Of a stretch of 64,000 bases of DNA, positions 9,707 through 25,751 are shown piece by piece. The stretch's first letter is position 1. The number at the start of each line of letters is the position of its first letter. The notes beneath the pieces are model-generated. The model was not told the DNA's origin. It saw only the letters and a list, made by a program, of their open reading frames with translations, and did no database searches. The stretch comes from a virus: positions 118,360 to 182,359 of IMG/VR virus record IMGVR_UViG_3300035696_000005; one strand, given 5' to 3'. A program made the translations under genes and the position numbers.

Positions 9707-9781
9707 TGGTAGCCCTGCTTGGAATCGCACCAAGTTCTTCGGTTTCGTAGACCGATATCCTATCTATTGAACGACAGGGCC
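9707..9781 (-). tRNA. tRNA-Arg(ACG)
   Basis: TCGGT-CTACGAA-ACCGA; T-loop TGCGATT; CCA. Confidence 0.85.
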
Positions 9782-9883
9782 ACATGAGGTAAAGTGGAAG
9801 GCGTGTGGTAACAACATCTATCTCCGAATTCAGTACTAGCAACTGAAACTGACGCCACACGTGCGTCTAAAAGGAGATAGGAT

Positions 9884-10111
9884 ATGAAGCGTTATACGAT
9901 TGTCGAGCTTTGCTCTGTTGACCACCCCAATGCCGAGAAGATCAAGAAGTACAATAAGGACCTGGGCTTCCATGTCTATAAATACCGTGGTGCCTATATG
10001 CTCATCATCGGTGATGAGTATGTGTGGAGAGCTGACGATGTCGACTACTGTTACATTGAGGGCGGAATGTACGTCTTTAATGAAAAGGGCGAACCTGTAA
10101 AGGTCGCTTAA
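9884..10111 (+). CDS. Small hypothetical protein on the opposite strand
   Basis: AAGGAG RBS; 75 aa. Confidence 0.65.
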   Translation: MKRYTIVELCSVDHPNAEKIKKYNKDLGFHVYKYRGAYMLIIGDEYVWRADDVDYCYIEGGMYVFNEKGEPVKVA

Positions 10112-10113
10112 AT

Positions 10114-10187
10114 TGGAGCCCCAACCGGGAGTTGAACCCGGGCGTCCTGACTGGCAGTCAGGCATGCTACCGTAACATCTCTGAGGC
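10114..10187 (-). tRNA. tRNA-Gly(GCC)
   Basis: CCTGA-CTGCCAG-TCAGG; TTCAACT; TCCA. Confidence 0.9.
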
Positions 10188-10210
10188 ATTGAACTTGTAT
10201 TAGGAAAATT

Positions 10211-10250
10211 CCCCTATTGAAACGCTGTTCACCCAGTGTTTCAATAGGGG
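10211..10250 (+). promoter_or_regulatory. Long hairpin covering the RBS of the protease gene
   Basis: CCCCTATTGAAAC / GTTTCAATAGGGG perfect 13-bp stem, extendable by GCTG/CAGT; ATG at 10252. Confidence 0.7.
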
Positions 10251-10251
10251 T

Positions 10252-11019
10252 ATGAAAAACAAACTTTTTGGTCGTCGTCCTCGTGGCTTTAACCATAAGA
10301 TCCCGCACATGAGCGCCATGCTGCTGGGCTCCGACAACTCTGTCTTTGTGCCGCCCAGCATCAACTATGCTCCGGACACTGTTTCGAATTTTGGAATGAT
10401 GTTGAATGATCAGCTCGGGGATTGCACTTGCGCTGCTGTCTACCACTCCATTCAAATTTGGTCCTTAAACGCACAAGGATCGATGCTGACAGAGCCGGAC
10501 AATGATGTCCTCTCTTTGTATGAGCAGGCTTGCGGGTACAGCCCAGCCGATCCTAGCACGGATCAGGGCGGGGTCGAGCAGAGCGTTCTCTCATATCTCC
10601 TCAACAACGGTGCTCCGATGAGTAGCGGAGCACCCCACAAGATCTCTGCTTTCTATGAAGTCGATCCTCGTAACACCAAGGACGTTAAGCAAACAATCTA
10701 CGAATGTGGCGTTGCTTACATCGGTATCGATGTTCCAGCCAATATCATGCCGGATGACGGCATGCCTCCGCAGCTCTGGCAGGTCGTGCCTAACCAGGAG
10801 ATTATTGGTGGGCACGCGATTGCTCTGACTGGCTATAACGCCACCGGTCCTTTTCTGATCAGCTGGGGTCAAAAATTTCAAATGACCTGGGATTTCTTTA
10901 ACCAGTATACCGACGAGGTCTACGGCATCGTAGACTCTGAGTGGATCGCCAAGACTGGCAAGACTCCTTGTGGAATGACACTTGTTCAGCTTGAACAAAT
11001 GATGCAGTCCATGAAGTAA
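10252..11019 (+). CDS. Papain-fold (C1-like) cysteine peptidase
   Basis: NDQLGDCTCAA (Cys), GGHAIALTGY (His), ISWG; 255 aa. Confidence 0.75.
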   Translation: MKNKLFGRRPRGFNHKIPHMSAMLLGSDNSVFVPPSINYAPDTVSNFGMMLNDQLGDCTCAAVYHSIQIWSLNAQGSMLTEPDNDVLSLYEQACGYSPADPSTDQGGVEQSVLSYLLNNGAPMSSGAPHKISAFYEVDPRNTKDVKQTIYECGVAYIGIDVPANIMPDDGMPPQLWQVVPNQEIIGGHAIALTGYNATGPFLISWGQKFQMTWDFFNQYTDEVYGIVDSEWIAKTGKTPCGMTLVQLEQMMQSMK

Positions 11020-11120
11020 GCCGCTGTTTATCATTCACGGAAGTGTCGGCAGTTTAACGTAACTATGTGCTTTTTCACGATTTAGTGATCTCCTTATCAG
11101 TCACGTTATCATTCAAAAAT

Positions 11121-11195
11121 TGGAGCCCCGAGCGAGAGTCGAACTCGCTTCACCAGATTGGAAGTCTGGCACATCACCACCAATGTTTTCGAGGC
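11121..11195 (-). tRNA. tRNA-Gly(TCC)
   Basis: CCAGA-CTTCCAA-TCTGG; TTCGACT; TCCA. Confidence 0.9.
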
Positions 11196-11196
11196 A

Positions 11197-11271
11197 TGGA
11201 GCCGCTACCGGTGTTCGCACCCGGATCGCTACATTACCAATGTAGAGCTCTGCTACTTAAGCTATAGCGGC
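11197..11271 (-). tRNA. tRNA-Thr(GGT)
   Basis: CTACA-TTGGTAA-TGTAG; T-loop TGCGAAC; CCA. Confidence 0.85.
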
Positions 11272-11278
11272 ATTAAAA

Positions 11279-11352
11279 TGGTACCCCAGCAAGGAATTGC
11301 ACCCTGTCGAGCTGTTTCGAAGACAGCCATGCGTCTACTACATCACTGGGGC
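11279..11352 (-). tRNA. tRNA-Arg(TCG)
   Basis: GCTGT-CTTCGAA-ACAGC; T-loop TGCAATT; CCA. Confidence 0.85.
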
Positions 11353-11392
11353 TCAGGATATTGGTGCGCGGCCACGCACCTCACTGATAGTT

Positions 11393-11418
11393 AAAAAAGC
11401 CGAGCCCGAAGGCTCGGC
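11393..11418 (-). terminator. Intrinsic terminator
   Basis: GCCGAGCC-TTCG-GGCTCGGC-T6. Confidence 0.85.
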
Positions 11419-11422
11419 GAAA

Positions 11423-11668
11423 CTAAAGCAAATGAAGTTCGTACTTGCTGTTCTGTGTTTGGAACAGGTACTTACTTTCTTCTTTGAGAAACGAGCACTC
11501 CTTGATTTCGGTTGTGAGAACAATCCTGAGATTACCCTCTTCAAGTGGTGGAGCAGTCATTAGAAAAGTCTTCCCAACTTCAGGAAGCTCCATACATTTC
11601 CCGACAATCTCGTTTGTCCTTAGGTTGTTGTGATTAGACTGAATCTTCACTAACCGTACTTCGTACAT
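11423..11668 (-). CDS. Small hypothetical protein, 81 aa
   Basis: ORF track; AGGAG RBS; followed by terminator. Confidence 0.65.
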   Translation of the reverse strand: MYEVRLVKIQSNHNNLRTNEIVGKCMELPEVGKTFLMTAPPLEEGNLRIVLTTEIKECSFLKEESKYLFQTQNSKYELHLL

Positions 11669-11675
11669 AAATCTC

Positions 11676-12416
11676 CTAGTCGATATTTTCCTGCTGGTAG
11701 ATTTCCATCTCTGGGAATCTTAGAGCAGTGAGTTTTCCGTAGTAAGGTCTCAACGGATCACCGAGAATCGTTATGCCCTTATAAGCACATCCCGTATCAA
11801 TGTTGGCATACCAGTCTTGGATATCAGGACCACTTTGCTGTGGCGTGTGTCCGTGGACGTTATACCAATTTTTGACGTTCTTCCTCGGTGGCTTGTAGCG
11901 GTTCCAGATGAAGGTCTGTCCGTCCCAGCCAAATTTTTTAACCTGATTCTCAAGATGACCCTGACCGACAGGGGCGTGAGTGATCAAAAGATGCCTTCCA
12001 TTCTTGTGCTTGAGTTCCTCGTACTCAAGATAAAGCGGAAGTGCCTTGATGTACTCTTGGTGCTTTTTCAGAACCTCGATACCTTCACAGGTGTGTGCTC
12101 TGTTGATTACTGTTTCTCCTGGATGCGGATAGAGTAGTCCATCTGGACAGCTACAGTAGCTTGCGTAAGCCTTAAGTCCTCCGTTGTAGAGCCACAAGCC
12201 TTCTTGCTTATCATCCGACATGAAATCATCGTGGTTTCCTTTGATACATGTGATCTTGTTATCGATGATGTATTGGATGAGCTCGCGGGTTCTTGGTCCA
12301 CGATCAGGGAGATCTCCTGCAACCACAAAAGGCTCGCCTGGAAATTTGGCCGTCATGTCTTCATGAAGCTTCTTGAACGTTAGAAAACATCCGTGCGGAT
12401 CTGTCGTGATAATCAT
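11676..12416 (-). CDS. Metallophosphoesterase (Ser/Thr phosphatase-like)
   Basis: TDPHG, GDLPDRG, GNHD, THAP, HGHTP, NIDTGC; AAGGAG RBS before ATG 12416. Confidence 0.9.
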   Translation of the reverse strand: MIITTDPHGCFLTFKKLHEDMTAKFPGEPFVVAGDLPDRGPRTRELIQYIIDNKITCIKGNHDDFMSDDKQEGLWLYNGGLKAYASYCSCPDGLLYPHPGETVINRAHTCEGIEVLKKHQEYIKALPLYLEYEELKHKNGRHLLITHAPVGQGHLENQVKKFGWDGQTFIWNRYKPPRKNVKNWYNVHGHTPQQSGPDIQDWYANIDTGCAYKGITILGDPLRPYYGKLTALRFPEMEIYQQENID

Positions 12417-12454
12417 ATAGATCTCCTTGGAAGTCTCATACCAGCATTTTAAAG

Positions 12455-12531
12455 TGGTAGGGATGGTGAGAATCGAACTCACTTGATGTCTTGCTCCCAA
12501 AGCAAGCGGCTAGCCTTTGGCCCACATCCCT
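12455..12531 (-). tRNA. tRNA-Pro(TGG)
   Basis: CTTGC-TTTGGGA-GCAAG; TTCGATT; ACCA. Confidence 0.85.
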
Positions 12532-12630
12532 ACATTAAAATTGCATTCCGATGCCCGGTCACCCTAACTCACAACTTCGCATGTGACGCATATTCCAGCA
12601 ACCGGCCTCTTTGACCTGGCTGATGAAAAT

Positions 12631-12697
12631 TGGAGCGGGCTGTTGGCTTCTAACCGAAAGAGCTTATGCTGCAGCAACTTCTCTTTCCAGACCCCGC
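12631..12697 (-). ncRNA. tRNA-like element ending in CCA (non-cloverleaf)
   Basis: GCGGG/CCCGC terminal stem + TCCA; GAAAGAG/CTCTTTC stem; small GG-TTAGAAG-CC arm; no D-arm. Confidence 0.4.
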
Positions 12698-12704
12698 ATA
12701 GTAA

Positions 12705-12944
12705 CTAATTGGCCGCAATAGATCCACGGCGTTTAAATTCGATAGCCTCTCTGGCTTTTTCCAGCGCCTCTTGCATAGGGAGACGCATGCTGCTTGCTGA
12801 CAGTACTGTCCATAAACGAAGTGGTTCGTCACTATCTTTCAGCGTTACCTGATAACCTACTTTTGCACCACGCTCAGGAATCCAGGCGACGGTTTCGAAA
12901 TTCTCGCTTTTCAGTACGCACTGCCTAAAGAAGTCATCTTTCAT
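12705..12944 (-). CDS. Hypothetical protein, 79 aa
   Basis: ORF track; AGGAG RBS. Confidence 0.65.
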   Translation of the reverse strand: MKDDFFRQCVLKSENFETVAWIPERGAKVGYQVTLKDSDEPLRLWTVLSASSMRLPMQEALEKAREAIEFKRRGSIAAN

Positions 12945-12958
12945 ATAGTCTCCTAAAA

Positions 12959-13037
12959 TGGTGCCCCCAGCCAGCTCCGCCCTGGCACATTCACCGAGTC
13001 TCAGTCGATGCTCTCTACTAATCTGGAGTATAGGGGC
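12959..13037 (-). tRNA. tRNA-Leu(GAG), short variable loop
   Basis: ATCGA-CTGAGAC-TCGGT; T-loop GGCGGAG; ACCA. Confidence 0.7.
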
Positions 13038-13041
13038 ATAA

Positions 13042-13221
13042 TCAGTTGGCTGAAATTTTCGGATCTCTCCAGACTAAGGAGTCTGTGAGTACGTCAATGT
13101 AGTAAAGAATGCGTCCTCTTTCGTCTCGCTCTTTCTTCACCTTAAGTCCACCAACCTGTTCGTTGATGCGAATGACTTCTTTGATTCCTTCGTCGAATTC
13201 TGAGCCAATGATGACCTTCAT
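13042..13221 (-). CDS. Small hypothetical protein, 59 aa
   Basis: Manual translation MKVIIGSEFDEGIKEVIRINEQVGGLKVKKERDERGRILYYIDV...; GGAGG RBS; TAATG overlap. Confidence 0.6.
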   Translation of the reverse strand: MKVIIGSEFDEGIKEVIRINEQVGGLKVKKERDERGRILYYIDVLTDSLVWRDPKISAN

Positions 13222-13478
13222 TAGTATCCTCCCCTTTTCCTGATAACCTTACTTTCTTTGAAGCAGTAGTCTAGGTTCACCTTATCAGCGTCTGCTTTGT
13301 TTTGACCCCCAGCATGGCTGTTGGCAAGGTAGTATTGCTCCACGCCGTCTATGCAACCGTACTCGTACCAGTTGGAACCCGTCATTCGCACGTAAGCGTA
13401 GGCAGCGAAGTATGCTGTCGGAATAAACAGCAGCATAACAAGCACCAGAGCAGCGAGCGACATGGCGATATATTTCAC
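13221..13478 (-). CDS. Small membrane-anchored protein
   Basis: N-terminal hydrophobic helix; AAGGA RBS. Confidence 0.55.
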   Translation of the reverse strand: MKYIAMSLAALVLVMLLFIPTAYFAAYAYVRMTGSNWYEYGCIDGVEQYYLANSHAGGQNKADADKVNLDYCFKESKVIRKRGGY

Positions 13479-13492
13479 TGACTATCCTTTAA

Positions 13493-13575
13493 TGGTGACC
13501 CTGGAGGGACTTGCACCCCCACGCCGAAGCATAAGTTCCTAAGACTTACGTGTCTGCTAATTCCACCACAGGGCC
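13493..13575 (-). tRNA. tRNA-Leu(TAG), long variable arm
   Basis: TAAGT-CTTAGGA-ACTTA; T-loop TGCAAGT; ACCA. Confidence 0.9.
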
Positions 13576-13581
13576 ACATCC

Positions 13582-14118
13582 CTACAAAAAGTCCTTGAGA
13601 TAAGACTCCCACACAGCCGGATCATTTGGCAAGTACTGGATTGTCATCGCAGGCTCCCATGAAGGTTTGAATGGCTCCCTAAGGAGTTTCATTTTAGCTT
13701 CTTGAGGTGTCCTGTTTCTCTTCTTCTGGTTGCAAGGTTTGCAAGCAGTCACGATGTTAGTCCAAGACTTGTAAGAGTCTGGCGTTCGATTACTCTTAGG
13801 AATTACGTGGTCAAGCGTGAGCTTGGCTGCTGGAAATTTCTTACAGCAGTATTGGCAGATGTAGCCATCTCGCCAGAACACGTTGGGCCTGGAGAATTTT
13901 ACGAAACGCCTCTTATAGTGTCCCGCTCCATTAAGCATCATTACGCAAGGAAGATTGAGAGTAAGGCGCTGAGAGCGTATGGGAATATCAGCGTATTCTT
14001 CTAAAACATCCGCCTTACCCTCGTAAAGCTTTTCAATGGCTTTCCTACCATTGATTACATCGATAGGCTGCATGCCTTGATCAAGAAGTAACACACGGAC
14101 TTTTTCTAAGTTTGCCAT
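13582..14118 (-). CDS. HNH endonuclease (McrA-like)
   Basis: RDGYICQYC, LTLDHVIPKS, NIVTACKPCNQKK. Confidence 0.9.
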   Translation of the reverse strand: MANLEKVRVLLLDQGMQPIDVINGRKAIEKLYEGKADVLEEYADIPIRSQRLTLNLPCVMMLNGAGHYKRRFVKFSRPNVFWRDGYICQYCCKKFPAAKLTLDHVIPKSNRTPDSYKSWTNIVTACKPCNQKKRNRTPQEAKMKLLREPFKPSWEPAMTIQYLPNDPAVWESYLKDFL

Positions 14119-14145
14119 ACAGCCTCCTCTCTGGGTTTACGTTAA

Positions 14146-14224
14146 TGGTGCCGGTGATCGGACTTGCACCGATAAGCAGTAAGGTTTGAGCTTACTAGGT
14201 ATGCTAGATTCCCTTCACACCGGC
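14146..14224 (-). tRNA. tRNA-Leu(CAA), short variable loop
   Basis: GTAAG-CTCAAAC-CTTAC; T-loop TGCAAGT; ACCA. Confidence 0.8.
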
Positions 14225-14656
14225 TCGTTTCCAATTAAACTGTTTTGCGGTCCTACGCCTATGGCAGTTTGCACAGCGGACTTCGCATTTACTGATTTCC
14301 TCTTCAATGGCTTTCCAGCTGTAGGCACCGCGAACAAGCAGTGTCACAGCACTGATCTTAAGGTCACGGTCAACGTGATCAAAGTCAAGGACAACCAGAT
14401 CGTCTTCGCCGCAGTCCACACACGGATGCTCAAGCAAATACTTGAAAAGTTTTTCGTAATTCTCTGCCCTAATGTCCTTGTTGCGCTTGCGAGCCTTTTT
14501 CTTGTAATAGCCTTTATTATTCTGATAGTGATCGCGAAGCCTGGCTCTACGGCACTCAGTACAATAAGACCTGCGCGTGCCGGTCTTTGGATTCTTGATG
14601 TCAAACTCTTCGATGGACTTCTCAAGCTTACACGGACCAGTGCAGCGTTTAGTCAT
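14204..14656 (-). CDS. HNH-family endonuclease; stop inside tRNA-Leu(CAA)
   Basis: CVDCGE..VLDFDH...CEVRCANCH; N-terminal Cys motifs. Confidence 0.8.
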   Translation of the reverse strand: MTKRCTGPCKLEKSIEEFDIKNPKTGTRRSYCTECRRARLRDHYQNNKGYYKKKARKRNKDIRAENYEKLFKYLLEHPCVDCGEDDLVVLDFDHVDRDLKISAVTLLVRGAYSWKAIEEEISKCEVRCANCHRRRTAKQFNWKRAGVKGI

Positions 14657-14695
14657 TAAACAGAGTGTAGGTAATAATTTCCGCTATGTCAAATC

Positions 14696-14771
14696 TGGTG
14701 CCCGTGATGGGTACTGCCCCCAAAAGACGGCGGATTTTAAGTCCACCCGATATACTATTCTCTACACAGGC
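14696..14771 (-). tRNA. tRNA-Leu(TAA), short variable loop
   Basis: GTGGA-CTTAAAA-TCCGC; T-loop GGCAGTA; ACCA. Confidence 0.75.
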
Positions 14772-14775
14772 AAAC

Positions 14776-14849
14776 TGGCGTCGCTTAAGGGAGTTGAACC
14801 CTTCTTGTCCGACTGAGAATCGGAAGTCCTACCGATAGACGAAAGCGAC
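14776..14849 (-). tRNA. tRNA-Glu(CTC)
   Basis: TCCGA-TTCTCAG-TCGGA; TTCAACT; GCCA. Confidence 0.9.
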
Positions 14850-14850
14850 A

Positions 14851-15138
14851 TCAAAGCTTAATCTTATCCCGATACTTCTTCATGGCCCGCTCGACTGTGC
14901 CTACGAGCTTTCCTTCGTCCTCGGCTAAGGCAGCGTGTTCTAGAGCCTCGTGTTTGAGGTCATCGCCCCAATCAAGAAGCCTGCAACGCTCTTTAGGATC
15001 AGATTCTTTTGCAGCCAGAATAAAGACAGCCATTGCGCGAGATGCCCACTTTGACGCAGTCTCGCGCTCGATCTGTTTTTCGCTTTTAGTCTGAACTTCC
15101 TTCATGGCTTCGGCGATATCGAATCCGATTTTGAACAT
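14851..15138 (-). CDS. Hypothetical helical protein, 95 aa
   Basis: ORF track; TGATATAAT (extended -10-like) just upstream. Confidence 0.6.
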   Translation of the reverse strand: MFKIGFDIAEAMKEVQTKSEKQIERETASKWASRAMAVFILAAKESDPKERCRLLDWGDDLKHEALEHAALAEDEGKLVGTVERAMKKYRDKIKL

Positions 15139-15153
15139 TTGTCTATTATATCA

Positions 15154-15229
15154 TGGTGGACTACATGGGAATCGAACCCATCAAAAACTGATTGCAAATC
15201 AGCCTACTTCCCCAGCTGTTTCGTAGCCC
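15154..15229 (-). tRNA. tRNA-Ala(TGC)
   Basis: GCTGA-TTTGCAA-TCAGT; G3:U70 pair; TTCGATT; ACCA. Confidence 0.9.
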
Positions 15230-15238
15230 ATTGAAATT

Positions 15239-15285
15239 TGGCATTGGGGAGAGCCCGGCAACTAGGCCGTATGACTCTCCCCAAT
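15239..15285 (-). ncRNA. Minihelix-like hairpin ending in GCCA
   Basis: ATTGGGGAGAG/CTCTCCCCAAT 11-bp stem, apical CGGC/GCCG hairpin, 3' GCCA overhang. Confidence 0.4.
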
Positions 15286-15288
15286 CTT

Positions 15289-15471
15289 TTAGCCGAACAG
15301 AATTCGGCGCGCTTGAGTCAGCGTCTGAGCCGACATGAATTCGGCTTCCACTTTTTTCTCTTGCGCACGCTTCTTGTGAAGCGCTTTGTAGTTGGTCAGA
15401 CTACGAAATGGGCTTAACACCCATCTTTCCTTCCCGTCCTGGGTAAGGAACTTCCTCTTGATCTGGTTCAT
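15289..15471 (-). CDS. Small basic hypothetical protein, 60 aa
   Basis: ORF track; GAAGGAGG RBS located in a hairpin. Confidence 0.55.
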   Translation of the reverse strand: MNQIKRKFLTQDGKERWVLSPFRSLTNYKALHKKRAQEKKVEAEFMSAQTLTQARRILFG

Positions 15472-15573
15472 AACAGACCCTCCTTCAGCTTTTGAGCGAA
15501 GAAGAGGTCTAGAAAGGATCTTCCGTAGTCATAGGCAGATGATGCCTGATGATGTTTTCAAAATCAAATTAAA

Positions 15574-15648
15574 TGGCAGGGGATGAAGGTAGTGCGCCCT
15601 CTTCTGCTGGTTTGGAATCAGCCGTGTTACTTTTATCACTAATCCCCT
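15574..15648 (-). tRNA. tRNA-Trp(CCA)
   Basis: GCTGA-TTCCAAA-CCAGC; AGGGG acceptor; T-loop CGCACTA; GCCA. Confidence 0.8.
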
Positions 15649-15659
15649 ACTGGAAAAAC

Positions 15660-15734
15660 TGGGGTCGCGTACGGGTTCTGCCCCCGCCTGTTCACCTTGA
15701 AAGGATGATGACCTCACTAGAAGTCGAACGCGAC
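15660..15734 (-). tRNA. tRNA-Glu(TTC)
   Basis: TCATC-CTTTCAA-GGTGA; GTCGC acceptor like Glu(CTC); T-loop GGCAGAA. Confidence 0.8.
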
Positions 15735-15739
15735 AAACT

Positions 15740-15816
15740 TGGGGTGATCGACGGGAGTTGCACCCGCTTACCCTGCTTCACAGGCAGGTACCTCAGCTAC
15801 TTCGGTTTCAACCACC
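15740..15816 (-). tRNA. tRNA-His(GTG)
   Basis: CCTGC-CTGTGAA-GCAGG; encoded G-1 and C73. Confidence 0.85.
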
Positions 15817-15825
15817 ACTGGAACT

Positions 15826-15900
15826 TGGTCGCTACGGGGGCACTTGCATCCCCTTCAGCAGGATATGAATCTGCAGCTTTACTTTATAAGCTACGTAGCG
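15826..15900 (-). tRNA. tRNA with CAT anticodon (elongator Met or Ile2)
   Basis: GCAGA-TTCATAT-CCTGC; paired C1:G72; T-loop TGCAAGT. Confidence 0.75.
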
Positions 15901-15953
15901 AAATGAGCAATCATCAGCCGCCTTCTGCAGTTCGGCTGTATCTTCGCTGATGA

Positions 15954-16307
15954 TTACCACTTGGCTGCTTGTTCAGCAGCATGAAACTTTCGATGACAAT
16001 TTGCGCACAAGATGTCGCATTTTTTTAATTCAATTAGTATGCGTTCTTTGCTCGCGTGATGAGCCAGTAACTTTGACATTTCTGAATCTTTTTCTGATGG
16101 ATCTCGATGATGAAAATCCAGGCAAGCTCTGTCTGTCTCTCCGCATTTTTTGCATTTGATATTCGGCGTAATCTCAACGAACCACTGCCTAATTTCTCTT
16201 CTTCGTGCCTGATTTCTTGAGTGATAGGCTTCTTTGTTTTTGAGGTAATGTTTGCGCTGAGCTGTTCTTTGTTTTTTTGTATCTGAGTAAGGCATGGTTC
16301 GTATCAT
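15954..16307 (-). CDS. HNH-family endonuclease (paralog of 14204..14656 and 25180..25554)
   Basis: CKKCGE...LDFHH.DP..K...KCDILCANCH. Confidence 0.8.
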   Translation of the reverse strand: MIRTMPYSDTKKQRTAQRKHYLKNKEAYHSRNQARRREIRQWFVEITPNIKCKKCGETDRACLDFHHRDPSEKDSEMSKLLAHHASKERILIELKKCDILCANCHRKFHAAEQAAKW

Positions 16308-16342
16308 ACGCTATAGATATGAACTTTGTAAATTTAAAGGAA

Positions 16343-16407
16343 TCGGGGGAGGTGATTCGATACACCATCTCCGGCTTTCGCCGGGCTCTAACTTAAGCTA
16401 TCCCCCG
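16343..16407 (-). ncRNA. Anticodon-less tRNA mimic (GAAA tetraloop)
   Basis: Acceptor CGGGGGA/TCCCCCG, D-arm GCTT..GAGC, CCGGC-GAAA-GCCGG arm, GGTG-TATCGAAT-CACC arm; no encoded CCA. Confidence 0.65.
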
Positions 16408-16410
16408 TCA

Positions 16411-16482
16411 TGGATGCAGGTCCTAGGGATGCCCTAGGGTCTTCTGGTTATGAGCCAGACATGGTCTCTCCACTAACCTGCA
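16411..16482 (-). tRNA. tRNA with CAT anticodon (Met or Ile2)
   Basis: TCTGG-CTCATAA-CCAGA; TGCAGGT/ACCTGCA acceptor; T-loop GGCATCC. Confidence 0.7.
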
Positions 16483-16518
16483 AAATCTACTATGGCAAAT
16501 CTTGCCGCCTTTGTCAAA

Positions 16519-16591
16519 TGGTCCGCGCTCCGGTTCCGCCCCGGTCCCTAACTCTTATAAGGAGTTTGTTGTTCTACTCAACTAAACGCGG
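16519..16591 (-). tRNA. tRNA-Ile(TAT)
   Basis: AACTC-CTTATAA-GAGTT; T-loop GGCGGAA; ACCA. Confidence 0.75.
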
Positions 16592-16623
16592 ATGTATACT
16601 GAAAAAGACCATCTTGGAGATAT

Positions 16624-17565
16624 ATGAAAACAGAAAACTTCTATGTCATCGCAGTGATCAGCAACCCCATTCGTTTCAAAAGCCGCTACGCCCTCTATCA
16701 AAAATTTGAAGCAGAAGTCAAGGCCGCAGGAGCACAACTTCTGACTGTGGAGTGCGCGCTTGGAGACAGACCACACATGGTTACGGAGTCGAATAATCCG
16801 TGGCATCTTCAGCTCAGAACCTGGGACGAAATTTGGCATAAAGAAAACATGATCAATCTTGGGCTAGCACGCCTTCCTTCCAATTGGGAATACGTCGCTT
16901 GGATTGATGCCGATGTTTCTTTCATCCGAAAAGATTGGGTTCTTGAAACCATCCATCAACTTCAGCACTACATGGTTGTTCAAATGTGGGAGACCGCTAT
17001 TGATCTAGGACCAACCGGTAGCGCTCTTGCGACTCATCATTCGTTCATTTCTCAGTACATCAAGGGTAAACCTTATTGCTACGGGCGACCTGGCGGCTAC
17101 TACTATGAACAATGGCATCCAGGCTATGCTTGGGCAGCCAGGCGCGAAGCAATTGATCATCTGGGTGGCATGATTGATACCGCAATCTTGGGTGCTGGCG
17201 ATAACCATATGGCACACGCCCTGATCGGTATGCTCGATGGATCGATCGCAAAAGGTCTTCACCCAAACTACATCAAGCACCTGACGACGTGGCAAGCTCG
17301 TGCTGAACGACATGTTCGTAGAGATGTTGGCTTTGTTCCTGGAACGATCTGTCATTCGTGGCACGGTAAAAAAGTGGACCGTAAATATCATGATCGCTGG
17401 AAGATTCTTGTGAATCACCAGTATGATCCGGATCTTGATCTTAAGCGCGACTCTCAGGGTCTTTATCAGCTCGTGGATCACGGGACACTCAGAAGTTCTC
17501 GTTTTCGCGATGATCTTCGTAGATACTTCCGCGCAAGAAACGAAGACTCCATCGATCTAGAATAA
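16624..17565 (+). CDS. GT-A fold glycosyltransferase-like protein
   Basis: WHKENMINLG...YVAWIDADVSF (DxD), PGYAWAARRE, GAGD; 313 aa; antisense to the tRNA cluster. Confidence 0.65.
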   Translation: MKTENFYVIAVISNPIRFKSRYALYQKFEAEVKAAGAQLLTVECALGDRPHMVTESNNPWHLQLRTWDEIWHKENMINLGLARLPSNWEYVAWIDADVSFIRKDWVLETIHQLQHYMVVQMWETAIDLGPTGSALATHHSFISQYIKGKPYCYGRPGGYYYEQWHPGYAWAARREAIDHLGGMIDTAILGAGDNHMAHALIGMLDGSIAKGLHPNYIKHLTTWQARAERHVRRDVGFVPGTICHSWHGKKVDRKYHDRWKILVNHQYDPDLDLKRDSQGLYQLVDHGTLRSSRFRDDLRRYFRARNEDSIDLE

Positions 17566-17566
17566 A

Positions 17567-17641
17567 TGGTGCATCCCCACGGTACTGCCCCGTGTGCACT
17601 GCCGTGTAAAAGCAGCCGCTCACTTTTTGCTGTTGAGATGC
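17567..17641 (-). tRNA. tRNA-Val(TAC)
   Basis: CTGCT-TTTACAC-GGCAG; T-loop GGCAGTA; ACCA. Confidence 0.75.
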
Positions 17642-17642
17642 A

Positions 17643-17716
17643 TGGTAGCCCTACCAGGAATCGGACCTGGGTTTCTTCCATGTCACGGAAGCGCTCTTCC
17701 ATTGAGTTATAGGGCT
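17643..17716 (-). tRNA. tRNA-Val(GAC)
   Basis: CTTCC-GTGACAT-GGAAG; T-loop TCCGATT; ACCA. Confidence 0.8.
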
Positions 17717-17725
17717 ATAGGAAAC

Positions 17726-17799
17726 TGGTTGGCCTTCCCGGTACCGCCCCGAGTTCTTGCGCCTATCAAGCGCAGGCATCACTTTAATGCTTAAGGCCA
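17726..17799 (-). tRNA. tRNA-Ile(GAT)
   Basis: TGCGC-TTGATAG-GCGCA; T-loop GGCGGTA; ACCA. Confidence 0.8.
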
Positions 17800-17807
17800 G
17801 TCTTTTA

Positions 17808-17882
17808 TGGTGGGCCGCCCGAGGCTCGAACTCGGTTCTACGGATTAAGAGTCCGCTGTGTCACCCGGTACACTTGCGACCC
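17808..17882 (-). tRNA. tRNA-Lys(CTT)
   Basis: GCGGA-CTCTTAA-TCCGT; TTCGAGC; ACCA. Confidence 0.9.
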
Positions 17883-17905
17883 ACAAAAAATGGTATATGG
17901 TTTAG

Positions 17906-17979
17906 TGGTAGGCCCGAACGGTACTGCCCCGTTTTCCTTAGGTTAAAAGCCTAATGTATCACTTTAATACTTCGAGCCC
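17906..17979 (-). tRNA. tRNA-Lys(TTT)
   Basis: TTAGG-CTTTTAA-CCTAA; T-loop GGCAGTA; ACCA. Confidence 0.85.
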
Positions 17980-17981
17980 AC

Positions 17982-18056
17982 TGGAGCCTCCGGTGTGAAT
18001 TGCACACACGCTTTCTCTTTTGCAGAGAGATATCTCCCTAATTCGATCACGGAGGC
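17982..18056 (-). tRNA. tRNA-Cys(GCA)
   Basis: TCTCT-CTGCAAA-AGAGA; T-loop TGCAATT; TCCA. Confidence 0.85.
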
Positions 18057-18065
18057 ATAGAAAAT

Positions 18066-18141
18066 TGGAGCCAGCTCCGGCGTTCGCATCCGGTTTACCT
18101 GCTTACAAGACAGGAGTTTTACTACATAGAACTAAGCTGGC
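18066..18141 (-). tRNA. tRNA-Thr(TGT)
   Basis: CCTGT-CTTGTAA-GCAGG; T-loop TGCGAAC. Confidence 0.85.
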
Positions 18142-18142
18142 A

Positions 18143-18217
18143 TGGAGCCTCCACACGGACTTGCGCCGAGCTATCAGCTTTACGAAAGCTGCACATCGCT
18201 ATCTATGTTTTGAAGGC
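18143..18217 (-). tRNA. tRNA-Thr(CGT)
   Basis: CAGCT-TTCGTAA-AGCTG; T-loop CGCAAGT. Confidence 0.8.
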
Positions 18218-18226
18218 ATTGAAAAA

Positions 18227-18301
18227 TGGCGGAGCTAAGGGGAATTGAACCCCTGTTTTCCGATCGACAGTCGGATGTAATTGCCACTATACGATAGCTC
18301 C
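18227..18301 (-). tRNA. tRNA-Asp(GTC), first tRNA of cluster B
   Basis: TCCGA-CTGTCGA-TCGGA; TTCAATT; GCCA. Confidence 0.9.
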
Positions 18302-18327: not shown

Positions 18328-18401
18328 TGAAGTCACCGCTCAGGCGTCACCCTGACTTGGTTCTGAATATCCTGTAGGTTTCCCCACAGGGTCCAACTTC
18401 A
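18328..18401 (-). ncRNA. Candidate three-way-junction RNA
   Basis: TGAAGTT..ACC/GGTGACTTCA closing stem; CCTGTGGG-GAAA-CCTACAGG and TCAGG-GTGACG-CCTGA hairpins. Confidence 0.45.
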
Positions 18402-18428
18402 TCTACAAGCACTGCTTTTCAAATAGCT

Positions 18429-18469
18429 AAAAAACAAAGAGCCAGCCCTGGTTTCCCGGGGCTGGCTCT
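18429..18469 (-). terminator. Attenuator terminator B
   Basis: AGAGCCAGCCC..GGGCTGGCTCT-TTGTTTTTT; 5' arm complementary to the end of leader ORF B. Confidence 0.85.
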
Positions 18470-18496
18470 ATCAGTTCAAACTTTTTAGTTATCCCT

Positions 18497-18613
18497 TTAG
18501 ATCCAGCCCCTCTTAGTACCCGGTTCAATACCGGTGACCAAATGAGCGCACATATCCAGTCCACGCTTTGTGGCTGGTTTTGCTGCTCTGAGGTTGGACC
18601 ATAGGTTAAACAT
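18497..18613 (-). CDS. Leader peptide B, 38 aa (MFNLWSNLRAAKPATKRGLDMCAHLVTGIEPGTKRGWI)
   Basis: Manual translation; ATG 7 nt after a -10 box; last codons AGG GGC TGG ATC complementary to terminator 5' arm. Confidence 0.75.
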   Translation of the reverse strand: MFNLWSNLRAAKPATKRGLDMCAHLVTGIEPGTKRGWI

Positions 18614-18620
18614 AAGTTTA

Positions 18621-18649
18621 AGAATAATGGGGTTAGGAAGAAGTTGCAA
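18621..18649 (-). promoter_or_regulatory. Sigma70-like promoter of leader B / tRNA cluster B
   Basis: TTGCAA-17 nt-TATTCT-7 nt-ATG. Confidence 0.75.
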
Positions 18650-18668
18650 CATTTATTTTTGAATAGCT

Positions 18669-18705
18669 AAAAAAAGACCTGCTCTCCAGAAGAGCAGGTC
18701 TTTTT
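18669..18705 (-). terminator. Intrinsic terminator after AIPR-like gene
   Basis: AGACCTGCTCT..AGAGCAGGTCT with T-tracts. Confidence 0.85.
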
Positions 18706-18711
18706 ATTAGT

Positions 18712-20051
18712 TTAGGAGTTGGGCGACGACCGCACTTCGGAACGAATATTGTGCGTTACCGCGCCGTATTCATTAGTTTGCGTTACTCCTTTCTTATTCT
18801 TAACGCTTACCCGAACCTTGGTAATTTCTTCAGTTCGTGGAACGGATTTTTCAACCATGTCGTACAGTTTGTTCCAGATAGATTCTGTCCTGCCGAAAGC
18901 GTAAGTGTTCTGCTTACCCGTGATTTTTAGCAGAGCATAATCTAAGAGGCTTTGCAGAGTTTTATCCACAAACTCTTTAACGTCTTCGAACGGCATGATG
19001 AATTCTAGATCCTGCCCGTTTTCACCCAACCTAACCAACTGCCTGTATGCAGACAAGATAGGCATGCGAATCGAATACATCAAAAGATAATCGATTTCTC
19101 CATTAAGGAAGACAAGCTGTTTATACTTGGCCTTCTTTCCAGTAGTTTTATGGGCATATGTTCTAATCTGAGAAACCTCTCCATCGAATCTCTTACTGAG
19201 GTATCTGGAAGATAGTAACAGCACATAATCCATTAGAGCCGCAAACTGCGGTCTAATCTTTTCTCTGGCCCTCACCGCTTCCGGATCAGATTTAAACCTG
19301 TCGATAACAAGGTCATCTCCGCAAACGTTGATAAAAATTGGAGCCCTCCTCTTTCCAAGGTAGGTATGCCCATCCAATGCCAAATCGAGTTTAGCTAAAT
19401 CAACGCAAGACCAGGTTGTGTCTGGCTGGTTCTCTTTTCTTTCAATCTTATCTCTGGACGGGTGATTCTCGAAACTAACTTCAAAAGTATCGAATACGCC
19501 GCCAAGATAGGCAAAAGAAGACGATTTAACCTTGTTGCTTGAGTTAAGCCGAAAAGATGTCGACAAAAGATCTTCTCTAGTTTCAGTAAAGCCCTCAATC
19601 AACCAGATACTCTGTTCGACATTGAACGGTTATCTTTGGCATCCATCAGAGTTTTGTAAAGATTTTGACCGTTAACAATTCCTCCGATAGCCATTTCCCC
19701 CAAATTGCAGTCGAATGTGACAGTATCCCCGTCACTATCCAACTCTCCAATGAGGACATGGATGGCATTATTGCTTACCAGATGTGTACCCGCTTCTTTT
19801 GGAATATGTAGGGATTTTTCGATTCCTCGGATGACCTTGTTGCTTTCTGGGACAGGATATCTGGCATTAGAATCGTTTCTAACCACTTGGGCGTTTTTCA
19901 GATCCTTCAAGGTAGTTACGATCCATGTCACTCTCCTCACCCTATCCCACTCACTTTCCGGAAAAAATTCTAGAAGCTTCGTATCAGTATTCCGGATCGT
20001 TGATTCGTAAGTACTGCGATGCTTAACTTTGAGGGTAACGATAGTATTCAT
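18712..20051 (-). pseudogene. AIPR-like gene split by a -1 frameshift near 19599..19629
   Basis: ORF 19599..20051 has SNNAIHVL..GGIVNGQ; the overlapping frame is open from 19629 (PFNVEQSIWLIEG..RLNSSNKVK) and continues the AIPR-like pattern into 18712..19602. Confidence 0.55.
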
Positions 20052-22341: not shown

Positions 22342-23976
22342 TTACAACTCAACCGAATTAACAACTGATTCGACATCCATTCCAAGCGTACCTACAGCTC
22401 CGAATAAGGCTGGAGTGAGCGTGTTATACACAATCATGGAATCACAGTTTGGAACTGCCGACCAAGGATTTGAAGCTTGGTTGATCAGAATCAGCTTTGA
22501 ACGTGAATTGACATTCTTTTGATACTTCAAGAATGCCTGATCCAGCGGTGTTCCCTGATTTTGGGCTTCATCGGTGATGATGATGAACTTATCCACATGC
22601 TTATCTTCAGCCAACGCTTTTTCGATAATCATGGCCGGGTTGGTATAGCCAGCAGCATAAGGATATTCAAGTACCATCTTCATGTCGGTCTTACGGTTTC
22701 CAGTCCAGCGAGGAAATGCTGCAGCACCACGAGATGCCCCAACGGAGCTTCCTTCGAAATGAAGCCTGCTATTTTCAAACCAGCTAAACCGAACGTCTCT
22801 AGCTTTACCATAGAATGCGTAAGCAAAAACGTTAGCAACTAGATACGACCATTGGTCAGAGTTTCCAAGACCACCGCGCATTGAGCCTGAGCTGTCAACA
22901 CTGACTTCAATAACGTCATCAGCGATCCCATCGATTGGAGTGTCGAAAGAAGAAGCTAAAGCTTCAGCCTGGATTCCCTTGATCTGTGGATGACTCGTAT
23001 GAACGTAGCTCTTGACGATGTCCAGCGGATTCATCCTTCCGCGCACAATAGCTTCAGGAGAAAGCATCTCACGATACTTCTCGATCGCACCGGTGAGCTC
23101 GAATACGCCGTGCTCGATGAATGAACGAGTATTCAAAAGAAGACCTTGAGTACCGCAGCTCATCATCAATGCAAACCACCAGCGTGGGTTGCTGCAAGGG
23201 ACTGGCTTAAGCGTATCAAACGGAAGCTTATTCTCCAGGATGATTCGACCCACAGCATCCAAATCGAAGTTCGGACGCTGCGCCATCGAGAGCACCTGCT
23301 CGTATGCCTTCTGCTGTGTTCCGTAAGGAACACCCTTACGGGTTCCTTCCTGCCCAGGGAACACGTAATCAAGCAGCGGGTTATTCCAGTCCGGGTGAGT
23401 CAAGCGAAGGAGGATTCGCATGTCATCCTTGTACTGGATCGTATAGCGCTCAAGCTTCTCAGGGCTCCAGCTCTTCATGACCTTACCGACCCAGCCTTGC
23501 TGGCGGTAGCCGAGACCCTTCGTGTACTTCTTTTGCATCTCGACATATTCCCGAAGCTGCTTCGGGTGATAAGTCGAAAGAAGATCCACAATGACGTCCC
23601 TGTAGTCAGCACAGAAGTCCTTGTTTGCGGACAGCGCAATAACGCCAAGCTTAGGCGACATCTTGATATTGCTTCGACGAGCAAGCACAAGCGCCTTAAG
23701 CAGAAACAGAGGGTTGGTCTGTGCTGCTTCAGAGAACCTCTTTAGCATCTCGGAGGCTTGCTTATCTGCATCGCTGTAATACGTATTTCCAATCACACCG
23801 CACTGAGACATACGGAAAATATCACGAGCAAACGAAGGAGTGAATGCCGCGTATCCATGAGGATTGGTTGTGGTCGGAGTTTTTCCGCTTGCGTGCTTTT
23901 CCATAAGCTTTCCGCCACGGCTTGAAGCAGGCTTTGGTTCCCGGGTATTTCGAAATGCGTCGACGTTGTTTGCCAT
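22342..23976 (-). CDS. rsr: Ro60/Rsr: TROVE + vWA RNA-binding protein
   Basis: TROVE-type N-terminus (IGNTYY..NPLFLLKALVLARR), vWA MIDAS VDSSGSM, FIIITDE; AGGGAG RBS before ATG 23976; Y-like RNAs adjacent. Confidence 0.85.
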   Translation of the reverse strand: MANNVDAFRNTREPKPASSRGGKLMEKHASGKTPTTTNPHGYAAFTPSFARDIFRMSQCGVIGNTYYSDADKQASEMLKRFSEAAQTNPLFLLKALVLARRSNIKMSPKLGVIALSANKDFCADYRDVIVDLLSTYHPKQLREYVEMQKKYTKGLGYRQQGWVGKVMKSWSPEKLERYTIQYKDDMRILLRLTHPDWNNPLLDYVFPGQEGTRKGVPYGTQQKAYEQVLSMAQRPNFDLDAVGRIILENKLPFDTLKPVPCSNPRWWFALMMSCGTQGLLLNTRSFIEHGVFELTGAIEKYREMLSPEAIVRGRMNPLDIVKSYVHTSHPQIKGIQAEALASSFDTPIDGIADDVIEVSVDSSGSMRGGLGNSDQWSYLVANVFAYAFYGKARDVRFSWFENSRLHFEGSSVGASRGAAAFPRWTGNRKTDMKMVLEYPYAAGYTNPAMIIEKALAEDKHVDKFIIITDEAQNQGTPLDQAFLKYQKNVNSRSKLILINQASNPWSAVPNCDSMIVYNTLTPALFGAVGTLGMDVESVVNSVEL

Positions 23977-23990
23977 AAATCTCCCTACAT

Positions 23991-24038
23991 AAAAAAAGAG
24001 AGGGACATAGCTTGCACAATGCAAGGTGGCCCCTCTCT
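23991..24038 (-). terminator. Terminator between Y-like RNAs and Ro60 CDS
   Basis: AGAGAGGGGC..GTCCCTCTCT-T6 with inner TTGCA/TGCAA hairpin. Confidence 0.7.
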
Positions 24039-24049
24039 GAGTTGAAAGA

Positions 24050-24112
24050 GCCACTGTGAATTGTAGAACCGGTTTTTCGTTTCAAGTGATGAACGGTTCC
24101 ACGAAGAGTGGC
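24050..24112 (-). ncRNA. Y-like RNA 4
   Basis: GCCACT/AGTGGC outer stem; AACCGTTCATC..AAACCGGTT core. Confidence 0.65.
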
Positions 24113-24135
24113 GAACTTGGTACTTCAATTGTTTT

Positions 24136-24262
24136 ACTACTATAAACGGATCAACCGGTTTTTAGCGTCCTAGCCATTAGACGACCTAGACCAAGGTCTT
24201 GGGTGAGATTCGAACTCACATTTCCATCTTGTGTAGATGAACGGTTAATTAACCAGAGTAGT
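24136..24262 (-). ncRNA. yrlA: YrlA-like Y RNA 3 with circularly permuted tRNA module
   Basis: Same core; insert 24166..24219 = T-arm GTGAG-TTCGAAT-CTCAC, loop-closed acceptor CCAAGAC/GTCTAGG, D-arm GTCT-AATGGCT-AGGAC. Confidence 0.75.
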
Positions 24263-24280
24263 AAATTTTCAAACAACAAA

Positions 24281-24340
24281 GCTACTGTGAATCGGACAAC
24301 CGGTGTTCAGTGTATAGATGAACGGTTATCCAAGAGTAGC
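24281..24340 (-). ncRNA. Y-like RNA 2
   Basis: GCTACT/AGTAGC stem; AACCGTTCATC..CACCGGTT core. Confidence 0.65.
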
Positions 24341-24361
24341 GAACTTCAAAAACTTTTTGTG

Positions 24362-24430
24362 GGGAGCTACTGTGTTTTGATCAACCGGTTTTCATTTTTG
24401 CCGATGAACGGTTAATCGAGAGTAGCTCCC
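24362..24430 (-). ncRNA. Y-like RNA 1
   Basis: GGGAGCTACT/AGTAGCTCCC stem; AACCGTTCATC..AAACCGGTT core. Confidence 0.65.
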
Positions 24431-24436
24431 TCAACT

Positions 24437-24450
24437 TACTTATAACAGAG
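24437..24450 (-). promoter_or_regulatory. Promoter motif upstream of Y-like RNA 1
   Basis: CTCTGTTATAAGTA, identical to 5626..5639; TTGACT further upstream. Confidence 0.5.
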
Positions 24451-24486
24451 TACCGGAAGATTGTTCCTAGTCAACTCTTTTTTAAA

Positions 24487-25111: not shown

Positions 25112-25189
25112 TGGCTGCGGGAGCTGGGATCGAACCAGCCTCATTTCGCATTAACAGTGCGACGCACTCACCCTGAACGCTATCCCGCA
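25112..25189 (-). tRNA. tRNA-Asn(GTT) copy 2, first tRNA of cluster A
   Basis: TCGCA-CTGTTAA-TGCGA; GCCA. Confidence 0.85.
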
Positions 25190-25554
25190 ACATCTAACTT
25201 TTCATGCTCCTCTGCGTGACAATTCAAACACAGTAGGACACATTTCTTTGCTTCAGCCAACACAGCCTTGTAAGAGCGCGTAATTCCTTTATTCGATACT
25301 CCGAAATCTTTCTTACTAGGGTCCGTATGGTGAAAACTTAGTGCTCCGTTACATTTGTTATAACCACACTTAGTACATTTACCTCCAAACTCATTAAGAA
25401 GCATTTCTTTTACACGCCTTCGTCGTCGTGCAACTGCTTCTGACCTGCATCTTACGCAGCGGTAATGCTGCTCACACTTAACGAAAATAAAGCTAGTTTT
25501 TCCATGCTTGCTGCAAACTCGATCAATATACTTTGTGGGCATGTTGGTTATCAT
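25180..25554 (-). CDS. HNH-family endonuclease; stop inside tRNA-Asn
   Basis: GGKCTKCGY..ALSFHH.DP..KDF...KCVLLCLNCH; start region in GTTGGTTA/TAACCAAC hairpin. Confidence 0.8.
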   Translation of the reverse strand: MITNMPTKYIDRVCSKHGKTSFIFVKCEQHYRCVRCRSEAVARRRRRVKEMLLNEFGGKCTKCGYNKCNGALSFHHTDPSKKDFGVSNKGITRSYKAVLAEAKKCVLLCLNCHAEEHEKLDVAG

Positions 25555-25579: not shown

Positions 25580-25620
25580 AAAAACAAAAACCCCGGCTAA
25601 CTTTCGCTAGCCGGGGTTTT
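25580..25620 (-). terminator. Attenuator terminator A
   Basis: CCCCGGCTAGC-GAAA-GTTAGCCGGGG-TTTTTGTTTTT. Confidence 0.9.
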
Positions 25621-25643
25621 GAGTTCTTGTCTATTCGTAATCT

Positions 25644-25715
25644 TTAGACGCGAACGCTCCCCGACCAGCTTTGCTGGTTACTATTAAAATAGCTTGAGGA
25701 GAAGTTCTTAGTCAT
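25644..25715 (-). CDS. Leader peptide A, 23 aa (MTKNFSSSYFNSNQQSWSGSVRV)
   Basis: C-terminal part of ORF 25644..25865; ATG 7 nt after -10 box; GCTGGTCGGGG pairs with terminator 5' arm. Confidence 0.8.
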   Translation of the reverse strand: MTKNFSSSYFNSNQQSWSGSVRV

Positions 25716-25722
25716 AAATACG

Positions 25723-25751
25723 ATCCTAAGCGGGATTTTCCGTTTGTGCAA
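25723..25751 (-). promoter_or_regulatory. Sigma70-like promoter of leader A / tRNA cluster A
   Basis: TTGCAC-17 nt-TAGGAT-7 nt-ATG; same geometry as promoter B. Confidence 0.7.

Follow-up and report, generated by a model that had tools for sequence, protein, structure and literature searches.

Genes and features at the locus

The window analysed here, 64,000 nucleotides long, is the last 64 kb of a phage record of 182,359 bases in IMG/VR. It carries two clusters of tRNA genes, each preceded by a short cassette; we call the cassettes A and B, and all of their features, like the tRNA clusters themselves, are on the minus strand. The main cluster extends from 18301 to 9707 and contains 21 tRNA genes, as established with ARAGORN, Rfam and a cloverleaf check, which together serve 15 amino acids (Asp, Thr, Cys, Lys, Ile, Val, Met, His, Trp, Ala, Glu, Leu, Pro, Arg and Gly). 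The second cluster, upstream of cassette B, extends from 25189 to 24491 and consists of seven tRNAs for Asn, Tyr, Phe, Gln and Ser. A preliminary description of this DNA had proposed that the 20 amino acids are divided 15 to 5 between the two clusters, and this is the case. Its figure of 29 tRNAs downstream of cassette B must be revised, since 21 are found downstream and seven upstream, and 29 is approximately the total for both clusters.

Along the direction of transcription, the order is a gene for a 296-residue protein, its terminator T1, the -35 and -10 hexamers of a promoter that we call P_B, the ATG and the remainder of a leader open reading frame (ORF), a second terminator T2, and then tRNA-Asp, the first gene of the main cluster. 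The features of cassette B and its surroundings are listed below, where "win" is the window's own copy of the cassette and copies in related phages are labelled by locus (L005, L008, L033).

18712-19602, upstream gene, 296 amino acids, closed by terminator T1
18673..18703 (-), hairpin of terminator T1 closing the 296-residue gene, about -21 kcal/mol, with a T run behind it
18644..18649 (-), -35 hexamer of P_B, with an A-rich stretch before it; first three bases invariant in the eight aligned cassettes
18621..18626 (-), -10 hexamer of P_B, 17 nt after the -35 hexamer and 7 nt before the ATG
18497..18613 (-), leader ORF, 38 codons plus TAA, no Shine-Dalgarno sequence, predicted to be leaderless
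18589..18606 (-), region 1, candidate anti-antiterminator strand (ORF nucleotides 8-25, codons 3-9)
18556..18577 (-), central hairpin within the ORF; one stem pair broken in L005
18513..18541 (-), second hairpin within the ORF; inner stem kept in win, L005 and L008
18493..18511 (-), region 2, antiterminator 5' strand (last four codons, stop codon and 4 nt beyond)
18457..18475 (-), region 3, 5' arm of T2 plus a few bases upstream; partner of region 2
18438..18469 (-), hairpin of intrinsic terminator T2 (the putative attenuator), -26.7 kcal/mol
18429..18437 (-), U tract of T2
18410..18428 (-), conserved motif directly 3' of the T2 U tract, recurring after T1 and after the cassette A terminator
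18371..18390 (-), conserved hairpin upstream of tRNA-Asp; one pair differs in L005 by a compensatory change
9707..18301 (-), proposed regulated unit: the 21 tRNA genes of the main cluster, among which lie small ORFs and an HNH gene

T2 ends 134 nt before tRNA-Asp (18301), and the hairpin at 18371..18390 in this interval is possibly a processing site. A promoter between T2 and tRNA-Asp was considered and rejected, as it would have to rely on weak hexamers whose spacing differs among the relatives. The motif that follows the U tract has a core of 7 nt that is found at many intrinsic terminators of this genome, including T2 (18428-18422), T1 (18668-18662) and the terminator of cassette A (25580-25574), and at no fewer than five further sites; it is kept in the relatives.

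Several other genes for RNA-related functions were observed in this phage and its relatives. A tRNA with an amber-reading anticodon, of the suppressor type, is encoded at genome positions 114918-114995 (-), 3.4 kb before the start of the window, and a tRNA of this kind is also present in a distant relative (G002, locus L028). The protein encoded at 22342-24054 (-) is an orthologue of Ro60/TROVE (Pfam vWA_Ro60, PHROG RNA-binding protein). Upstream of its gene are four repeats of a long-stem module, each about 85 nt in length (24040-24480, minus strand). The modules fold with a z score of -5.8, one of them has a tRNA-like T arm, and none matches an Rfam family; they are candidates for Y-RNA-like partners of Ro60. 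Genes for RtcB or an RNA ligase adjoin the tRNA clusters in some relatives (L004 16901-18106, L033 14929-15690 and L034 22191-23231), with the RtcB gene of L033 split into three ORFs. Together with Ro60 in the phage studied here, these genes suggest a theme of RNA repair around the tRNA region. A tmRNA-like gene lies between tRNA-Met and tRNA-Asn at about 1020-1400 of L030, a locus of relative G005, which is without attenuator cassettes.

A conserved promoter that appears to start transcription at the leader ATG

The layout previously claimed for the promoter and the start of the leader was found as described, with the -35 hexamer at 18649-18644, 17 nt to the -10 hexamer at 18626-18621, and a further 7 nt to the ATG at 18613. 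P_B is of the sigma-70 type. The same geometry recurs in eight aligned cassettes, four of type B and four of type A, in which the -35 and -10 elements, the 17-nt spacing and an ATG positioned 6-7 nt past the -10 hexamer are all kept while the sequence of the spacer diverges. At the level of sequence, the copies share the A-rich stretch, the initial three bases of the -35 hexamer and a -10 hexamer of the form TA...T; between L005 and L033 and the window's copy, the -10 hexamer of P_B is identical in spite of the diverged spacer.

The ORF of 38 codons that the preliminary description had proposed begins at this ATG and ends with the stop codon at 18499-18497. No Shine-Dalgarno sequence precedes its ATG, compared with 74% of this phage's genes that have one. 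This absence and the conserved geometry of promoter and ATG point to a leaderless mRNA, and we infer that the leader begins at the predicted 5' end of the transcript. A longer reading of 51 codons from an ATG at 18652 was rejected because it has the conserved promoter inside it and is absent from the relatives.

Cassette B is conserved in diverged phages

Relatives of this phage were difficult to find. Searches of GenBank phages by DNA and by protein yielded none, and single-protein searches of IMG/VR with three neighbouring genes returned no usable ones. The 296-residue neighbour protein has no relatives, the only other contig that carries it having a copy that is 100% identical. An exact search of IMG/VR with a 19-nt core gave no match, and neither did a gapped pattern made of the conserved spacer and post-terminator bases; against metagenomes, the same pattern gave nine AT-rich chance matches, none of them homologous. 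Relatives were found by means of the gene at 26776-30222 (-), whose product of 1148 amino acids has an AEP primase domain of the type known from TOTE conflict systems (Pfam PF22548) and whose homologues, at 33-65% identity, are on long metagenomic contigs. This primase defines a clade of phages of about 115-180 kb that is known from metagenomes only.

Three further copies of cassette B were identified in this way, at position 19573 of L005, 12473 of L008 and 15740 of L033, each of them directly ahead of a tRNA cluster that opens with tRNA-Asp. The divergence among these phages is substantial, as the primases of the four are 61-65% identical. Nevertheless, the ORF is open in L005, L008 and L033 (37, 39 and 38 codons, respectively), and its stop codon lies inside region 2 in all four phages. 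The set for comparison comprises only these four homologues from a single clade, a limit that we count against our interpretation. Two other relatives, L034 and G005, have tRNA clusters and no such cassettes.

Alternative RNA structures and their covariation

The final codons of the leader had been reported to pair over 8 nt with the 5' arm of the terminator. This pairing is present and can be extended to about 12 bp. The energies of the resulting antiterminator (the duplex of regions 2 and 3), its p value against shuffles and the energy of the terminator are as follows in the four phages:

win: antiterminator -25.0 kcal/mol, shuffle p 0.012, terminator -26.7 kcal/mol
L005: antiterminator -23.6 kcal/mol, shuffle p 0.004, terminator -19.0 kcal/mol
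L008: antiterminator -29.7 kcal/mol, shuffle p 0, terminator -25.0 kcal/mol
L033: antiterminator -23.8 kcal/mol, shuffle p 0.012, terminator -23.7 kcal/mol

The antiterminators are therefore comparable in strength to the terminators with which they would compete. The terminators differ in sequence among the phages, and the end of each ORF has changed to fit its own terminator, with six positions showing compensatory changes on both strands of the 2:3 duplex when the copies are placed in register by the stop codon. Conservation and covariation together exclude chance as an explanation of the cassette. The pairing is also unusual within the genome: when its 20 strongest terminators are ranked by the energy of their upstream complements, T2 and the cassette A terminator come first and second (-23.0 and -22.1 kcal/mol), whereas the complements of the other 18 are at -17.4 kcal/mol or weaker and no different from shuffles.

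A hexamer upstream of region 2 had been suggested as its alternative partner. That assignment did not hold, as the hexamer folds locally in the central hairpin (18556..18577), possibly a pause hairpin, and is mutated without compensation in L005. A better candidate is provided by ORF nucleotides 8-25, our region 1, which is predicted to form with region 2 a duplex of -17.8 kcal/mol that is part of the minimum-energy fold of the full-length transcript. In three of the four phages the minimum-energy fold pairs region 2 with this part of the leader (ORF nucleotides 4-25), and in L008 the pairing is placed elsewhere. Against shuffles the duplex does not reach significance, a point that we count against our interpretation. 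Between the ATG and the U tract, the RNA has a predicted folding energy of -80 kcal/mol (z -6.1), with both the 1:2 duplex and T2 formed; when the 3' arm of T2 is left out, region 2 pairs instead with region 3 to give the antiterminator. As judged from such predicted folds, the 1:2 duplex, the 2:3 duplex and T2 correspond to the trio of mutually exclusive helices that defines the classical type of attenuator.

The effect of a ribosome on these structures was modelled by equilibrium folding with the 3' arm of T2 absent and a ribosome footprint of 28 nt. With the A site at any of codons 1-31, the antiterminator has a predicted probability of 0.9 or more. This probability falls with the A site at codons 32-34 and is 0 at the last four codons or the stop codon, so that blocking of the antiterminator is confined to the last 4-5 codons and the stop codon.

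On 18429-18649, Rfam gave no match at gathering score, whether to Thr_leader, His_leader, Trp_leader and other leaders or to the T-box. Hits to Thr_leader at 30-32 bits (cut-off 55) were seen off cassette B, on T1 at 18649-18771.

The leader samples the amino acids of the main tRNA cluster

The leader had been described as sampling every one of the 15 amino acids of the downstream cluster, with Asn, Gln, Ser, Tyr and Phe absent after residue 7, and this is what it contains. The only residues of those five amino acids in the window's leader are Phe, Asn, Ser and Asn, all within the first seven, and codons 1-31 already cover the complete set of 15. Coverage of all 15 is found in 0.85% of the 38-residue windows of the phage's own proteins, and in 0.14% of them the window also has no more than four residues from the other five. 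The claim that 32 of the 38 codons are distinct is also borne out; a diversity of at least 32 different codons is reached by 0.66% of windows taken from genes, 0.87% of windows in all six frames and 6.5% of codon sets drawn uniformly at random.

This composition recurs in the relatives. The four leaders (win, L005, L008 and L033), which are 37-39 codons long, have 15, 15, 15 and 14 of the 15 cognate amino acids and 32, 33, 33 and 32 distinct codons, and the other five amino acids make up 6-16% of the residues in the leader cores, compared with 23% in the proteome. Residues present in a single copy (Met, Glu, Lys and Val) are at different positions in different phages, and so the coverage of 15 amino acids looks maintained rather than inherited. 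There are exceptions to the division of amino acids, and they count against our interpretation: besides the residues among the first seven, the leader of L033 lacks Cys even though its cluster has a tRNA-Cys, and L008 has Phe and Ser late in its leader. The idea that the leader is a checklist of 15 amino acids is thus supported for amino acids and codon diversity, not as a strict rule.

The same idea is not supported at the level of exact anticodons. The 20 codons reported to be Watson-Crick matches to phage anticodons were counted correctly (22 if two Asn codons are included); the significance attached to them does not stand, as the probability of 22 or more in 38 is 0.11. Such matches are unremarkable because 46% of the codons in the phage's genes match a phage anticodon. 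We therefore rejected exact codon-anticodon matching, which is at chance level, as a signal, and count this result against an attenuator. A second point that counts against it is the small number of leader codons, one to four, devoted to each amino acid; in the classical theory of attenuation so few codons per amino acid give low sensitivity to a mild shortage.

Substitutions among the four ORFs of type B show no excess at third positions, a result that we also count against the attenuator, as it means that coding constraint is not shown in the usual way. Non-synonymous changes exceed synonymous ones two- to six-fold, and, judging by these substitutions, the peptide itself does not seem to be constrained in the way that ordinary proteins are.

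A sister cassette precedes the second tRNA cluster

Cassette A has the same promoter geometry as cassette B and lies ahead of the tRNAs for the remaining five amino acids. Its features are:

25588..25751 (-), cassette A, in front of the second tRNA cluster (Asn, Tyr, Phe, Gln and Ser)
25715-25644 (-), leader A, 23 codons
25619-25588 (-), terminator of cassette A, with a 5' arm complementary to the end of leader A

Leader A includes 13 consecutive residues that are all Asn, Phe, Ser, Tyr or Gln. This is the longest such run in any of the six frames of the genome, the next being nine. The leader is kept in three relatives (L004, L005 and L007), in which the terminator abuts tRNA-Asn. In this phage only, an ORF of 124 amino acids at 25180-25554 (-) lies between the terminator and the tRNAs; its product is rich in Cys and His and was read as HNH-like, with no match in Pfam. 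It is likely the insertion of a homing endonuclease, which would now be under the control of the attenuator.

An independent test comes from two more distant relatives, whose primases are about 40% identical and which have cassettes of this family ahead of clusters of other composition. In G002, tRNAs for Leu, Leu, Ser, Ser and Asn stand behind a leader rich in Leu, Ser and Asn, and in G003 a cluster of Leu, Leu, Pro, Tyr, Ser and Ser tRNAs is accompanied by a leader that uses Leu, Ser, Pro and Tyr but not Asn. Hence, the composition of the leader appears to follow the tRNA content of the cluster among the relatives of cassette A, which is the strongest argument that the family reads the supply of tRNA. 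The parallel lends weight to the same reading of cassette B.

Discussion

Cassette B is probably a ribosome-mediated transcription attenuator that gates the main tRNA operon. The attenuation logic of the trp and his type that the preliminary description had invoked fits the anatomy of the cassette, the covariation of regions 2 and 3 in four phages and the parallel with cassette A. What we infer beyond these observations is where transcription starts, that ribosomes translate the leader, and that read-through would depend on this translation and on tRNA supply. In the mechanism that we propose, P_B would start a transcript at the ATG or one base before it, and the leader would be translated as a leaderless mRNA. 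A ribosome that keeps pace with RNA polymerase to the last codons or the stop codon would cover region 2, so that T2 could form and transcription would stop about 130 nt before tRNA-Asp. If the ribosome were instead delayed within the first 31 or so codons, region 2 would be free when region 3 emerges, the antiterminator would form in place of T2, and the polymerase would enter the 21 tRNA genes. Since the leader presents one to a few codons for each of 15 amino acids and scarcely repeats any, the arrangement would act as an OR gate over many tRNA species, and restored decoding would shut the operon off again by negative feedback.

A more elaborate version of this proposal is put forward tentatively. 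The leaderless leader may have been selected as a "pangram", with one codon or more for each amino acid that has a tRNA gene behind it and hardly any codon repeated, which would let one attenuator serve as an OR gate for some thirty codon species, with cassettes A and B dividing the genetic code between two independently gated operons. The system might then function as a damage sensor that switches on the replacement of host tRNAs cleaved or depleted in the course of infection, for example by anticodon nucleases.

Alternatively, the switch could be real and report general translation capacity, such as ribosome availability, the coupling of ribosome and polymerase or host shut-off, with the diverse codons serving as an average message. 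A sensor of this kind would be served equally well by high codon diversity. Moreover, of the 20 amino acids, 18 are found in the win leader and 19 in that of L005, among them Phe, Asn and Ser and, in L005, Gln; the exact codon-anticodon matches are at chance; and L033 has no Cys codon upstream of its tRNA-Cys gene. We nevertheless consider a general sensor unlikely, because the leaders of cassette A and its relatives clearly consist of amino acids served by the tRNA clusters behind them and change as those clusters change, which argues that the family as a whole is tRNA-specific, and because the B leaders are poor in the five amino acids served by the second cluster, to the extent given above.

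It is considerably less probable that cassette B is a stand-alone small gene, whose leaderless mRNA encodes a functional peptide of 38 residues, with the tRNAs expressed by leaky read-through or from elsewhere. In favour of such a gene, the cassette has its own promoter and a strong terminator, and all four phages retain the ORF, in which synonymous changes leave some motifs intact. The prevalence of non-synonymous substitutions and the missing third-position excess argue against this possibility, as do C-terminal residues that change along with the terminator arm and the absence of a PHROGs family match for the 51-residue reading that contains the whole leader. A small gene would also leave unexplained why the stop codon is always inside the complement of the terminator 5' arm, and why cassette A is built in the same way.

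Equally improbable is a structured non-coding RNA of about 180 nt in which the ORF is incidental, or a terminated leader that acts also in trans, as described for rnTrpL; the very stable fold, the separate promoter and terminator, and a nucleotide identity to L005 far above that expected from primase proteins 65% identical would suit such an RNA, whereas an ORF open in four diverged copies with its ATG fixed at the predicted transcript start and its stop codon fixed in region 2, the unusual codon diversity and amino-acid coverage of all four, the only partial conservation of the internal hairpins and the lack of an Rfam family match speak against it. A role of the leader in trans on top of attenuation is conceivable.

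Among known systems, the closest are the enterobacterial leaders trpL, hisL, leuL and pheL, and nearest of all the multivalent thrL and ilvL. Cassette B resembles them in its short, putatively translated leader, in the intrinsic terminator before the genes, in an antiterminator whose 5' strand includes the last codons of the leader, and in the proposed signal, which is the speed of the ribosome on cognate codons; region 1 is a candidate for the upstream strand that would sequester the antiterminator strand. It differs in its targets, which are tRNA genes rather than biosynthetic enzymes, and in using one to four codons for each of 15 amino acids where the enterobacterial leaders have runs of one or two regulatory codons. 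Its mRNA is apparently leaderless, unlike theirs, and there is no sequence relationship. Attenuation by a leader peptide is also known for a component of the translation apparatus, as the pheST attenuator of Escherichia coli, with its pheM leader, responds to charged tRNA. However, that attenuator controls a synthetase, monitors one amino acid and has a conventional ribosome-binding site, and cassette B differs in all three respects. T-box riboswitches are similar in that a switch between terminator and antiterminator reports the status of tRNA and controls genes related to translation. Nevertheless, the T-box binds uncharged tRNA directly and needs no translation, and cassette B has no T-box match.

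Full-text searches of the literature for leader-peptide attenuation of phage tRNA genes or of tRNA operons found nothing relevant. The tRNA genes of phages are usually discussed as aids to codon usage or as replacements for host tRNAs destroyed by defence nucleases, and to our knowledge the control of their expression is hardly known. At about 220 nt, cassette B is self-contained and could potentially be used as a compact reporter of decoding speed in cells. If our interpretation is correct, it would represent a new kind of leader, in which many codons are each sampled once rather than one codon being repeated, and would extend textbook attenuation to a new class of targets, namely RNA genes. 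The phage would then make the synthesis of its tRNAs conditional on the very defect that these tRNAs repair, and the response would be self-limiting.
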